DNA of 63,808 nt, the filler included, from Globobulimina sp. (Eukaryota): the NCBI GenBank assembly GCA_003354225.1. It is 58 parts of 58 records of this genome, joined end to end, with 100 filler letters (N's around TTAATTAATTAA, not from the genome) between each part and the next. Parts side by side here need not be neighbours in the genome. Positions count along the whole stretch, not along the records: positions 1,104 to 2,106 come from PIVH01026117.1; 57 more parts are not named here. One strand, given 5' to 3'. A program made the translations under genes and the position numbers. The first letter of the stretch is position 1; the number at the start of each line of letters is the position of its first letter. Below the pieces are notes generated by a model. That model was given only the letters and a program-made list of their open reading frames with translations. It did not search any database and was not told the DNA's origin. Shown one piece after another: positions 1,103 through 56,101 of the stretch.

Positions 1103-1236
1103 NTTTTTACCATGGACTATTTTATCAATCAGTGAGACATTTCAACGTGACACGGCAGCCGACGCCACCGAGTTCCATTTATCCTTTTATAAAATTGAAT
1201 ACAATTTTGCAATAGACCTTATTATTTCCTTAAAGT

Positions 1237-1803
1237 TTGTCGCATAAAGACAACACAACATTCTGCATCATGAATGTACAAAATATAGTTGTGTGTGGAG
1301 CGCTTGGTTGTGAATTAGATTTGCATAAAATAGAAACATCTTCTGTTGTCAATGCGAAGAAGCATGCAAGGTTTCCAGGTTTAATAGTGCACATAGCAAC
1401 ACCAAAAGTAACGATTTTGTTGTTCAGTAAAGGTAAAATAATCTGCAACGGCATCAAAGATATTGAAACAGCAAAAAAGGGAGTCCTTTTGCTTGGCAAA
1501 CGGTTGTCAAAACTTTCCTATGTGATAGATATGGATTCATGCATAAGTAGTTTACATATTGTCAATATGGTTACATCGTGTAGTACAGGATTCAGGATCA
1601 ATGTTGAACAGTTAACATTGGACCATCCTGTGCATGCTTTACTTAAAAAGGAGTTGTTTCCTGGATTATGTTATAAAATTGATGGAGCTACATTGTTGAT
1701 TTTTCATAGTGGAAAAGTTATTGTTACTGGTGTGAAGAATAAAGAAACTGTTGATACGGTTTGGAGTAAGATGGTCCCCATTATTGAAAAGTATCGTGTT
1801 TAG
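1237..1803 (+). CDS. TBP: Divergent TATA-box-binding protein, core only (ATG at 1270, or an exon after the acceptor-like ttcttaaag)
   Basis: Two TBP repeats: VQNIVV...RFPGL...TILLFSKGKIICNG and IVNMVTS...LFPGL...TLLIFHSGKVIVTG. Confidence 0.9.
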   Translation: MSHKDNTTFCIMNVQNIVVCGALGCELDLHKIETSSVVNAKKHARFPGLIVHIATPKVTILLFSKGKIICNGIKDIETAKKGVLLLGKRLSKLSYVIDMDSCISSLHIVNMVTSCSTGFRINVEQLTLDHPVHALLKKELFPGLCYKIDGATLLIFHSGKVIVTGVKNKETVDTVWSKMVPIIEKYRV

Positions 1804-1932
1804 TAAAAACGTCCTCTTAACAATATAAAATAATGCATTTTGGTTCAGAAAAAGATAAAACAAATCCAATTTTGTCTCGAAACTGAAAATATATTCTAAA
1901 GAACATAATACATTTTTCTATATTGCATTTTT

Positions 1933-2106
1933 ATGAAATCTGAAATCATGATGTCTGCTGAGTCAGAGGTACATTCTGTCAAAAATATATTCTTTGCTGC
2001 CATGGAAAGCAAATTGCGTATAGCCCCTGTAATACACCAAAACTGTCCTGGTTGTATTTACAATAAACTATCACAACGTGATCATGACCTTTGTCTCTCA
2101 ACACCA
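1933..2106 (+). CDS. Partial small Cys/His protein (CPGC...SQRDHDLC)
   Basis: ATG-initiated ORF running off the contig. The CxGC-x4-SQxxHxxC motif recalls accessory ORFs of Polinton/Maverick-type elements (from memory, not searched). Confidence 0.5.
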
Positions 2107-15436: not shown

Positions 15437-16309
15437 CATAGATGCTCTATTTCAGTGGAAGTGGCCTACCGGTTTTATTTGTCCTGCTTGTTCTTCGACG
15501 AGCTATTGCTCGTTGAAATCAAGGAAACTGTATCAATGCAATCATTGTCATCATCAAACATCTGTTACAACCAATACCATATTTGAGCATTCAAAATTAC
15601 CATTAACTATATGGTTTTTAAGCGTTCACTTAATAACTCAATCCAAAACTGGCATATCAGCTTTATCACTTAAGCGACATATTGGCGTTTCATACAATAC
15701 GGCCTGGCGTATTAAACAGAAAATTATGCAAGTCATGAAAGAGCGAGATGACAAGCGCCAATTAACAGGAACAGTTCAAATAGATGATGTTTATTATGGA
15801 GGTGAACGGCATGGAGGAAAACGAGGTAGAGGCTCTGAAAACAAAACGCCATTTATTGCAGCTGTATCAACAGATAAAAAAGGTCATCCACTTTATATGA
15901 ACTTCAATGTCGTTAAAGGCTTTCGGTTATCAGAGGTGGCACGTTGGGCAAAACAGCATTTAGCGGCAGGAAGTTTTGTTGTATCTGATGGACTATCTTG
16001 TTTTACAGCTGTTACAGAAGCTAAATGTAGGCACTCTAGTACAGTTACAGGCGGTGGTCCTGAAAGTGTCACTAAAGAGAAATTCATTTGGGTTAACACA
16101 ATGATTGGTAATATAAAGAATTCAATAACAGGTACTTACCACTCAATTAGTGACAAACATTTACCTCGGTATTTAGCCGAGTATTGTTATAGGTTCAACC
16201 GTCGTTTTTCCCTTAAAAACATGTTGCCTCGATTTATGTACGTAGCTTTGCGAACACCACCGATGCCACAAAGGTGCCTTACTATGGCTGAGCTTTATGG
16301 GTAATCAGG
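15437..16309 (+). mobile_element. Bacterial IS1595-family insertion sequence, right part with right IR ending GGTAATCAGG
   Basis: The transposase stop lies inside the terminal IR. It is followed by AT-rich TAAATAAT, a candidate 8-bp target duplication. Confidence 0.85.
15438..16304 (+). CDS. IS1595-family DDE transposase, 5'-truncated
   Basis: WPTGFICPAC...YQCNHC zinc ribbon, HTH region, VQIDDVYYGG, KRGRGSENK, VVSDG, and YLAEYCYRFNRR. Confidence 0.95.
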   Translation: MDALFQWKWPTGFICPACSSTSYCSLKSRKLYQCNHCHHQTSVTTNTIFEHSKLPLTIWFLSVHLITQSKTGISALSLKRHIGVSYNTAWRIKQKIMQVMKERDDKRQLTGTVQIDDVYYGGERHGGKRGRGSENKTPFIAAVSTDKKGHPLYMNFNVVKGFRLSEVARWAKQHLAAGSFVVSDGLSCFTAVTEAKCRHSSTVTGGGPESVTKEKFIWVNTMIGNIKNSITGTYHSISDKHLPRYLAEYCYRFNRRFSLKNMLPRFMYVALRTPPMPQRCLTMAELYG

Positions 16310-23152: not shown

Positions 23153-24152
23153 ATTCGAAAGAATGAAAATCCGATTCGAGTATACAATAAAATGCAGAGC
23201 TGCCTCAAACAAATCGAACAAATTATTGACATATTAAACGAGGACTATGGTGACGACGACGAGCGGGTAATCCCATACCTTACTGACCGTGAAAAATATA
23301 TCCTGTTCGTTACCTGCTTTGTGGAGAAGAATAATCGCTCGGATTACATGAATAATGGCTTAATAAATAGCATAACCCGACGCAGCATCACCAAACAAAA
23401 TCCAATCACGTTAGCCGGATTCATCAGAGCCGTCATGCAGTTACCGGCAAAATTACAGCCGCGATGCGAGGCCAATAACCCTCGTTATCAATTTACTGTG
23501 TATGATGACCGCGATATTAACATATTTAACTTATCGGAGTGGCCAAACCGATATAGAAACCCGGATCCAAACTCGTTCAATACATATAATAGGTTTTACG
23601 GCATCCGAGGTAGAGGCCGTGGCCGTGGACGAGGTCGAAATGGATATCGAGGACGTGGTGGATCCCGCGGTCGACCTCGCGGAGGTTACCGAGGCCGTGG
23701 ACGTGGTGGACGTGGTCGAGGACGAGGATACGGTGCACGTAATGGTCGAGGCCGCGATTTTAGTGGCAATAAACGGCAGCGCCCATCCGAATGGACGCAG
23801 AATGACCCAAATAAACGCCCGAAGGTTGAATGTGACCGCTGTGGCAAACCAGGCCATTATAAATCAGATTGCTATGCGAAATTCCATCGTGATGGCACCC
23901 GTTTGGAGGCCCAGAAGAATGCGCCGAATGCACCGAATAATAGAGGCAAATGTTTCCGATGCGGCCGAAATAATCATATGAGGAGAGACTGTACTGCGAC
24001 GACCACAGTTTCTGGCGATAAAATACTTGATATGCAGAGCCAAAGTATATCGCGGAACGTCCAACAACAACGCTCCAATGAGCAAAATAAAAAGAATCCG
24101 GATCGGCAGCAGTTTACATTAACGATATCGCAGCCGACACATACAAATAATG
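23153..24152 (+). mobile_element. Gag-like retroelement protein fragment with RGG box and two CCHC zinc knuckles
   Basis: Frame open across the whole contig. RGRGRG repeats, CDRCGKPGHYKSDC and CFRCGRNNHMRRDC. Confidence 0.65.
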
Positions 24153-41885: not shown

Positions 41886-42886
41886 ACTTTATTGGAACCA
41901 ATGCAATCGAAATATGATCCATTTCAAGTCGAATGTTTATGGGATAAATCGTGGGAAAACCGCGGATATTATAAACCGAAAATAAATTCAGAAAAAAAAG
42001 ATGCCAATCAATCTAACTTTGTAATGGTAATCCCGCCGCCAAATGTGACCGGTTCATTGCATTTAGGCCATGCCTTAATGGCCACCATTGAAGATACCAT
42101 CATTCGTTACTGGCGAATGAAGGGCAAAAATTGTCTATGGCTCCCTGGCACTGATCATGCTGGAATTGCTACGCAAACAGTGGTGGAAAGACGGTTGGCA
42201 AAGCAAGGCAAAACCAGACACGATTTAGGTATATTCATATTGTCCACCCTCACTTTTTTTGGTTGTATTTAGAAGCTTTGTTTTGTGAAATTTTGAAGGG
42301 AGAGAAGCGTTTTTGAGCGAAATCTGGAAATGGAAGAATGAGAAAGGAGGGAAAATCTGCAGTCAGTTGCGCAAAATGGGATGTTCAGTGGATTGGAGCC
42401 GTGAGGTTTTTACCATGGACGCCAAATTAACCACAGCTGTGACCGAAGCATTTGTGCGGTTATATAACGATGGATATATTTACAGAGACAACAGATTATG
42501 TCATTGGTCGTGTTCGTTACAATCGGCAATATCTGATGTTGAAATTGACAAAATTGAAATTGCGAAAAAAACTTATCTTCGCGTGCCAGGTATTAATATT
42601 TTATGTTTTGCAACCAATCAAAAATATTTTTTTTGGCTTCCAACTGGAAAATATTCAATTTGATTTCGTTTGAAACTGAATAGATTTTTGCGTCACAAAT
42701 AATTTTTCAGTTTGAAACTGAAATATGTTTTTTTTTGTACACAGGATACGATAAGAAAATTGCATTTGGAATTATCCATAAATTCGGATATCGCGTGATC
42801 GACTCTGACGAGATTGTCATTGTAGCCACCACGCGCTTAGAGACCATGTTAGGTGACACCGCAGTGGCTGTGCACCCAAACGATGA
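41886..42886 (+). CDS. VARS: Valyl-tRNA synthetase fragment, three exons (introns 42229-42298 and 42590-42744)
   Basis: [15 protein letters not shown] (HIGH motif), [18 protein letters not shown] and [19 protein letters not shown]. Both phase-1 GT-AG introns restore the frame. Confidence 0.96.
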
Positions 42887-55102: not shown

Positions 55103-56101
55103 CAGAAAAAGATTAATTCCGGTAATACTCATCATTTTACCCAGCAGTTACTTGAAGCGTTAATAGCACGTAATACCACACTTTACGAACAGACTTATAA
55201 TGCAATTGGAAAACTTGATAAATGGCGAAAGGCGTATAAGTTCCAGTTGAATGTACTTGTCAAGTTTCGAGAAGCAGCGCCAAAGACATGTACAGTTTTC
55301 GAAGATTCAGATAAGGGAAATGTCCCTTGGTTTGATCGATTTTCAAATTTCAAAAATGCCTGGAACTGGGCACGGACAAACCTGTGGCTCGACAAATTCT
55401 GTGATCCCAATGAACAAAAACGGCTAATCGCCGAACTGGATCGATCGGAAAAAAATGAACAAAAAATCATTAAGAAATTAGCCGCAGAAAAAGCATGGCA
55501 AGCTTGTATGGAAAAACTCACTGAGGAGCGGAGACAATCTCTTATTGCATGGTCACAGGCAGTTAAAAATATTCGTGGGGGAACTGGCCGACATGCTGAA
55601 CATCACAGGGAAACAGCTCGAAAAGAACTTAAGAACTGTCGTACTGCAATTCCGGCATGGATTATGCCATTATACCAGGTAGTCCAGACTATTTCTCCTG
55701 AGCCTGGAGTCTTTGATGTTGTTATAGTGGATGAAGCAAGTCAGTCCGGTCCAGAGGCACTTCTGTTAAGCTATATTGCAAAAAAAATAATTGTTGTAGG
55801 AGATGATAAGCAGATCAAGCCCAGGTACATTGGTATAAACCATGATGATGTATCCTATTTACGGAAACTCCATCTCGAAAATATCCCCCACAGTAATGCA
55901 CTGGATCTCAATGGAAGCCTCTTTTCCCAAGCTGAATTGCGGTTTCCAGACAGGATAAGATTGCGTGAGCATTTCCGATGTATGCCTGAAATCATCCAGT
56001 TTTGTAATAACAATTTTTATAGGAATGAATCTTTGTTTCCATTAAGGCAATACGGTGCAGATCGATTGGAACCGGCAGTTGTTGCGCATTATGTTGAAGA
56101 T
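55103..56101 (+). CDS. Bacterial superfamily-1 (DNA2/UPF1-like) helicase fragment, large Vsr/DUF559-fused type
   Basis: PAWIMPL, FDVVIVDEASQ, VVGDDKQI and LREHFRCMPEIIQFCN. No introns; frame open across the contig. Confidence 0.9.

Follow-up and report, generated by a model that had tools for sequence, protein, structure and literature searches.

The question raised by this locus is whether a small gene for a TATA-binding protein (TBP), found in the Globobulimina sp. assembly GCA_003354225.1, serves the host or belongs to a mobile element. The window, that is, the whole stretch of DNA analysed here (63,808 bases), consists of 58 pieces of 1001-1003 bp each, ordered by falling length and separated by 57 identical 100-bp spacers (44 N + TTAATTAATTAA + 44 N). 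Because the pieces are unrelated contigs, the context of the TBP gene is limited to positions 1104-2106 (PIVH01026117.1), and reasoning about neighbourhood across the spacers is invalid. We put the chances at about even that the encoded protein, P0001, is a minimal TBP of eukaryotic descent whose lineage is carried by Polinton-like elements, and which would bind the TATA boxes of the element and recruit host RNA polymerase II. The findings behind this reading are the TBP fold, the conserved DNA-binding residues, the eukaryote-type ancestry, the non-canonical status of the protein, a signature of purifying selection and the virus-type neighbours of its relative P0004.

P0001 matched the Pfam TBP family (PF00352) in two stretches (E = 1.6e-39; 134 bits, cut-off 22.9), a match far beyond chance. 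The closest solved structure was the human TBP core (1cdw, E = 7.9e-25), which aligned with residues 3-176 of P0001 and revealed a 4-residue insertion in its inter-repeat linker. The AlphaFold2 model, built on a 54-sequence alignment, had a mean predicted local distance difference test (pLDDT) score of 97.6 and a predicted template modelling (pTM) score of 0.88, and the predicted saddle follows the order S1-H1-S2-S3-S4-S5-H2 twice. Residues F35, F52, F130 and F145 aligned with the phenylalanines of human RFAAV, LIFSSGK, LFPGL and LIFVSGK, respectively, which we take to be the DNA-kinking positions of TBP. The context of the repeat-2 stirrup is A-L-L-K-K-E in P0001 and S-S-Y-E-P-E in canonical TBPs; the tyrosine, the first glutamate and the proline are replaced, while Glu128 and Leu129 are kept. 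The first-pass annotation of this DNA had described a core TBP of about 177 residues without an intron, with FPGL in both repeats, all four intercalating phenylalanines and LKKE in place of YEPE, and the uninterrupted reading frame, the alignment and the motif table bear out this description.

To find relatives, we searched 1.84 billion representative sequences exhaustively with HMMER, which gave 3164 hits at E<=1e-3, and a motif table was drawn up from P0001 and the best 150 of these hits (151 rows, with P0002 as the reference row). P0001 was 30-42% identical to the best 150 hits, or 30-39% as counted over the rows of the motif table, and is without close kin in that collection. A word-index search with P0001 alone gave 89 candidates, none of which scored. 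Canonical eukaryotic cores were 60-99% identical to P0002, whereas P0001 was only 34% identical to P0002 and 34-39% identical to the canonical cores, and the conserved core of a canonical TBP was not found in it. P0001 thus shares with canonical eukaryotic TBP (1cdw) the two-repeat saddle, the four phenylalanines, the LFPGL of repeat 2 and the eukaryote-type side of the tree described below. It differs from this subunit of TFIID, SL1 and TFIIIB by RFPGL instead of RFAAV, by L-K-K-E-L instead of Y-E-P-E-L, and by the missing N-terminal domain, the linker insertion and the low core identity. Another known relative, TLF/TBPL1 (TRF2), has lost several of the four phenylalanines and is not known to bind TATA, and on this description P0001, which keeps all four, is set apart from it.

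Two genes in other pieces of the window served as host controls. An ATP-citrate lyase fragment matched human ACLY over 300 aa (E = 1.5e-66, 228 bits), and a UDP-xylose synthase fragment matched human UXS1 over 97 aa (123 bits, ~59% identity as counted on the match line). Since both fragments are ordinary, the host lineage is not hyper-divergent, and P0001 at 34-39% is therefore not the canonical TBP of the host. It could be the canonical TBP of another, fast-evolving eukaryote that contaminates the assembly, and the assembly is indeed impure, with bacterial-looking transposase and helicase pieces. We regard this as very improbable, because the composition of the contig matches the bulk of the window, P0001 has no N-terminal domain and P0004 is flanked by virus-type genes.

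The ancestry of P0001 was assessed in two trees, a quick tree of 135 rows (after removal of 3 partial rows and of 13 canonical rows that were nearly identical) and a careful mixture-model tree of 67 rows and 175 columns, whose rows were picked from the HMMER and profile-search hits. The careful tree split into 46 rows of eukaryote type and 21 of archaeal type with an ultrafast bootstrap (UFBoot) of 100 and a Shimodaira-Hasegawa-like approximate likelihood ratio test (SH-aLRT) value of 98, and P0001 fell on the eukaryote-type side. The two sides were anchored by PDB searches, in which the best match of P0011 was human TBP (E = 1.5e-96) and the best matches of P0141 were 2z8u, 1pcz and 1mp9, which we take to be archaeal TBPs. 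P0001 stayed under every archaeal NCBIfam cut-off (best 103 bits vs 181), whereas the archaeal-type rows P0141, P0138 and P0080 reached 205-212 bits on that same model. P0001 does resemble archaeal TBP in being short, in its FPGL-type motif in both repeats and in a similar phmmer score (1pcz, E = 2e-22), but these scores and its position across the 100/98 branch do not sustain the archaeal-like affinity hinted at earlier. A feature search of the ESM Atlas, which returned mostly archaeal TBP clusters, was rejected as a guide to ancestry, since it is alignment-free and is contradicted by the tree and the NCBIfam scores.

The stirrup pattern A-[LM]-L-x-[KR]-E before LFPGL was present in only three of the 151 rows, namely P0001, P0004 (173 aa) and P0028 (171 aa), all of them minimal proteins. 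P0004 was 37% identical to P0001. The three formed a clade with SH-aLRT 96 in the quick tree and with 94/91 in the careful tree. A profile search brought in 35 further proteins, and the signature was found in none of the 22 sequences read; GTDB contigs gave no match for P0189, a relative of the downstream open reading frame (ORF) discussed below, or for a degenerate DNA stirrup probe. Judged from sequence, these proteins appear to represent a small lineage of minimal TBPs that has not been described so far (~170-177 aa, without N-terminal domain, with an FPGL-type repeat 1 and the stirrup A-[LM]-L-E-[KR]-E).

We then considered the surroundings of the sister gene. A metagenome scan was evaluated for the 80 loci retained out of 260 tblastn-confirmed stretches; these loci were mostly archaeal-type by their E-P-E-Q-F-P-G motifs, and the signature occurred in one of the 80, L001, a 4727-bp metagenome contig on which P0004 was recovered (the source contigs measure 12,165 bp for P0004 and 9,964 bp for P0028). 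On L001, P0004 is accompanied by an adenovirus-type cysteine protease and a Walker-A ATPase (Table 1). Adenain-type protease and FtsK/HerA-type ATPase genes are carried by nearly all adintovirus/polinton-like contigs >10 kb, according to excerpts of Starrett et al. 2021 (PMC8502044), and count as hallmark genes of such elements, which suggests a Polinton-like setting for the sister gene. The Fig. 5 legend of the same paper notes TBP genes in midsize eukaryotic linear dsDNA (MELD) viruses, and beyond this one legend the excerpts of the literature contain no description of a Polinton-borne TBP lineage. The combination of a TBP with such a protease and ATPase at L001 is a likeness to these MELD/Polinton-like genes (PMC8502044), as far as the legend and excerpts describe them. 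The neighbours of P0004 thus give moderate, indirect support to a Polinton-like origin.

The remaining ORFs of L001 were also inspected. Two of them share the C-terminal pattern H[FY]xVIT.MA.FFG...WCxxC...HLCI[ML], which resembles the OTU-like N-terminal region of Polinton polymerases, with no Pfam match at E<=0.01. The divergent spacer between the ATPase and TBP genes contains a 44-nt direct repeat (L001 1344-1387 and 1417-1460, 98% identical, 73-nt spacing), which may be a regulatory repeat.

Taken with the compact layout of the window contig, which has an intron-free TBP gene, a 129-nt spacer and a TATAAAA upstream of both ORFs, these results suggest that the window copy probably lies within a Polinton-like element (Maverick/adintovirus/MELD-type), integrated in or accompanying an AT-rich eukaryote. 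The earlier proposal of a TBP borne by a virus or Polinton therefore stands in part: P0001 is not a canonical host TBP and P0004 lies beside virus-type genes, but the accompanying statements on a zinc ORF and on TFIIB are not supported, as described below.

Since virus-encoded TBPs are known, we also weighed whether the gene comes from a giant virus (Nucleocytoviricota) or a mirusvirus, either infecting the sequenced organism or accompanying it. Giant viruses widely encode TBP homologues, with 47 matches in BFVD at E<=1e-3, and excerpts of a further paper report them in mirusvirus-like elements (PMC10675990). These virus-encoded proteins share the TBP fold with P0001, and the window contig is AT-rich and compact. 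Its octamer AAAATTGA at 1191-1198, 72 nt upstream of the TBP ATG, would also fit, and we take it to be the mimivirus early-promoter octamer. A second copy lies within the TBP ORF (1675-1682), which brings two of the 10 window copies onto this contig, but the octamer is not enriched in the window, where 18.3 copies were expected. The BFVD proteins were only 8-19% identical to P0001, far below cellular TBPs, and as a rule exceeded it in length (186-1426 aa in the 50 rows listed). The much closer kinship of P0001 with cellular TBPs points to a separate and later capture. The IMG/VR scans contained no relative, and the protease and small ATPase beside P0004 are typical of adintovirus/polinton-like contigs in the excerpts of PMC8502044. 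We therefore consider an origin from a giant virus or mirusvirus unlikely. This origin and a contaminating eukaryote are both less likely than a Polinton-like element or a host paralogue.

A further locus of the metagenome scan touches on this comparison. L004, an 11,440-bp contig with 20% G+C and densely packed genes, carries a 185-aa minimal eukaryote-type TBP at 2267-2824 (Pfam E = 2.8e-58), together with several orphan ORFs and a PP-loop (TilS-like) ATPase. The contig may come from a giant virus or from a nucleomorph-like genome, and its minimal TBP is a point in favour of the giant-virus origin.

The main rival is that P0001 is a host-encoded, lineage-specific TBP paralogue, like the TBP-related factors (TRFs), which serves a subset of host promoters and is either unrelated to mobile elements or long domesticated. 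We hold this to be a real possibility, though short of probable. The codon usage and G+C of the TBP ORF are indistinguishable from those of other window ORFs, near-identical copies occur in runs that carry the labels of three organisms and stem from two studies, as vertical inheritance in related taxa would produce, and the differences in one of these runs are mostly synonymous. Many divergent short eukaryote-type TBPs are also found in metagenomes, and the 1003-bp contig shows no virus gene. However, P0004 has virus-type neighbours, P0001 is intron-free, has no N-terminal domain and lies 129 nt from an orphan ORF, and no relative above 42% was found among the best 150 of the 3164 hits, although TBP paralogues from well-sampled groups should turn up there.

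Several results weigh against placing P0001 in a Polinton-like element. The window contig carries no hallmark gene within its 1003 bp, and the Logan contigs of the runs (33-611 nt, low depth) do not extend it. None of the 54 other long window ORFs matched a Polinton hallmark family in Pfam (protein-primed polymerase, integrase, capsid, A32 ATPase or adenain), and the codon usage of the TBP ORF is mid-range for the window (rank 19/43), with no foreign signal. The link to an element runs through one relative at 37% identity, and the 4.7 kb of its locus L001 contain no protein-primed polymerase (pPolB), integrase or capsid gene, while the ATPase match is under the Pfam cut-off. All three clade members are long branches. 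When the 15 signature columns were removed, P0001 and P0004 still paired (SH-aLRT 82), but P0028 left the clade for the base of the eukaryote-type side, indicating that the link between P0001 and P0004 is moderately robust and that the membership of P0028 is not. No clade member was found in IMG/VR in scans with P0001, P0028, P0004, P0189 and the degenerate DNA stirrup probe. Finally, since no TBP above 42% identity was found among those best 150 hits, the contig of P0189 is probably without a close TBP copy, and the pairing of the TBP with its downstream ORF may not be conserved.

To characterise the copies of the gene, we examined the sequencing runs in which words of the contig occur. By their labels these runs represent three organisms, sequenced in two studies (shares 0.89, 0.30 and 0.09), and no RNA run was among those listed for the contig. 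Run X2 spans 1346-1924 in three short contigs (depth ~2) with 10 differing letters, of which eight could be placed, all within the TBP ORF; at this low depth single differences could be errors. Six of the eight were synonymous, compared with 22% synonymous sites (P ~0.002), and without position 1545, where all runs differ from the window, five of seven were synonymous (P ~0.007). As most of the X2 differences are synonymous, the TBP gene looks to be under purifying selection. At 1449-1512, five small contigs of run X1 (33-61 nt) overlap, with a contig depth of 11.6 leftward and 5.7 rightward, and that sample seems to contain two or more variants of the gene (alleles or copies).

The two replacements in X2 were V121A and K126E. 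Codon 126 (1645-1647) is AAA (Lys) in the window and GAA (Glu) in X2, and the Lys126 of the window copy is backed by run X1 at a depth of 5.7. With K126E, L-K-K-E becomes L-E-K-E, identical to the P0028 motif, and P0004 reads L-E-R-E. Because P0004, P0028 and the X2 copy keep both glutamates, the lineage keeps both, and Lys126 is private to the window copy.

This result bears on the first-pass proposal that P0001 has lost its acidic stirrup and acts as a decoy, which binds TATA but not host TFIIB. The stirrup Glu-x-Glu-Leu of TBP contacts TFIIB, and charge reversal at its first glutamate breaks the contact. We take human E284 to be the equivalent of residue 126, where the charge reversal E284R prevents TFIIB from binding unless TFIIB itself is changed to compensate, and presumably Glu128 and Leu129 of P0001 are the other two TFIIB-contact residues. 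Lys126 and the E284R effect would favour a decoy. However, only the first glutamate is replaced, Glu128 and Leu129 are kept, and the two relatives and the X2 copy retain both acidic residues. Since Lys126 is private to one copy, a decoy function is not a property of the lineage, and the idea is a weak one that we consider doubtful at best; the window copy alone might bind TFIIB poorly.

The sequences around the TBP gene were also analysed. A TATAAAA near 1188 had been pointed out before and was located there, and a second lies in the spacer before the downstream ORF, but TATAAAA is not enriched in the window (39 vs 45.5 +/- 6.6 expected from shuffles), and the TATA box alone is not beyond chance. 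A scan for sigma-70 promoters and intrinsic terminators, irrelevant to a eukaryote, stayed at shuffle level. The downstream ORF, which shares the 1003-bp contig with the TBP ORF, had been described as a CPGC-x4 frame 130 bp away and as a Polinton/virus-type zinc ORF. The frame is present, but it lies 129 nt away and its motif reads CPGC-x5-SQRDHDLC, and no match in Pfam, PHROG, PDB or the Atlas was found to support the assigned type. It is also not similar to the ORFs beside P0004. Its sole relative, P0189 (145 aa, on a 2486-bp ENA contig), was identical at 31/44 residues (70%, E = 1.1e-12 database-wide) and retains the motif C-x2-C-x9-H-x2-C. P0189 itself matched no family at E<=10, its best PDB match was not credible (E = 0.47), its AlphaFold2 model was poor (pLDDT 43), and it has no assigned function. 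A more far-reaching scheme would give Polinton-like elements their own initiation module, in which the TBP, its stirrup rewired (Leu for Tyr, Lys/Arg for Pro and, here, Lys for Glu), works with an element-encoded partner, possibly the downstream CxxC...HxxC protein, instead of host TFIIB and is orthogonal to the host. We give this scheme very little credence.

Under the favoured reading, in which a Polinton-like element carries the gene, the intact saddle with its four kinking phenylalanines would bind TATA boxes in the compact promoters that belong to the element. The face formed by Glu128 and Leu129 would then nucleate a pre-initiation complex of host RNA polymerase II, this choice of partner being our inference, and the element would gain a promoter-recognition factor independent of host TFIID. 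Polinton-like elements are generally assumed to depend on host or helper-virus transcription. Virus-encoded TBPs are already known, and the P0001 lineage would be new among them; if the reading is true, some Polinton-like elements bring a eukaryote-captured TBP as their own promoter-recognition factor, as giant viruses do, and this would bear on how such elements are silenced or switched on in host genomes. The natural Lys/Glu126 pair of near-identical copies offers a ready-made test of TBP-TFIIB specificity, given the stirrup contact described above. If P0001 is a host paralogue instead, it would be one more lineage-specific TBP-related factor, of modest interest.

Table 1. Positions of the TBP gene and associated features in the window and of the genes on the metagenome contig L001
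Feature	Position	Strand	Basis and remarks
Contig with the TBP gene (second piece)	1104-2106		1003 bp, 34% G+C; spacers 1004-1103 and 2107-2206 on either side
TATAAAA, first copy	1188-1194	+	Motif count; 76 nt before the TBP ATG, inside palindromic TTTTATAAAA
Minimal TBP ORF (P0001), 177 aa	1270-1803	+	ATG 1270, stop 1801-1803; intron-free, two repeats, no N-terminal domain
FPGL, repeat 1, residues 35-38	1372-1383	+	Motif table; FAAV in canonical eukaryotic TBPs
Repeat-2 stirrup L-K-K-E, residues 125-128	1642-1653	+	Motif table; canonical Y-E-P-E
FPGL, repeat 2, residues 130-133	1657-1668	+	Alignment, motif table
TATAAAA, second copy	1824-1830	+	Motif count; in the 129-nt spacer, 102 nt before the downstream ATG
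Downstream ORF, 58 aa, cut by the contig end	1933-2106	+	ATG 1933, 129 nt after the TBP stop; C-x2-C-x9-H-x2-C
Adenovirus-type cysteine protease	L001 157-654	+	Peptidase_C5 E 1.9e-7, 31.4 bits vs cut-off 21.3; best PDB match African swine fever virus (ASFV) S273R, E 3.5e-4
Walker-A ATPase, 206 aa	L001 657-1277	-	Weak Pox_A32, E 5.5e-3, 16.6 bits vs cut-off 22.8; no PDB match
TBP P0004	L001 1594-2115		Between the ATPase and small ORFs
Two ORFs with a common C-terminal pattern, ending WCxxC...HLC	L001 2179-2910 and 3062-3565	-	No Pfam match at E<=0.01
C2H2 finger ORF	L001 3674-4336	-	

The rest of the window was scanned with Pfam as well, and 19 of the 54 long ORFs in the other pieces had matches at E<=1e-5. 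The pieces adjoining the TBP contig are unrelated to it and carry a Q/N-rich coiled-coil ORF (3-1001) and a beta-adaptin appendage ORF (2208-2963). Ordinary eukaryotic genes were found for ATP-citrate lyase, UDP-xylose synthase, Josephin, BTB, SPRY, CorA, eRF1 and a class I tRNA synthetase. Two pieces looked bacterial, one with an IS1595-family transposase at 15438-16301 (+) (DDE_Tnp_IS1595, E = 1.5e-35, and its zinc ribbon) and one with an AAA_11 SF1-helicase fragment at 55103-56101 (+), and from these the assembly may contain contaminant or symbiont DNA. An RG-rich ORF at 23153-24151 (+) carries two retroviral-type CCHC zinc knuckles (zf-CCHC_5, E = 7e-12) and is probably a retroelement gag. 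The class I tRNA synthetase is read in two different frames, 41886-42269 and 42289-42660 (+), whose open stretches lie ~20 nt apart, as a frameshift or a very short intron would produce.

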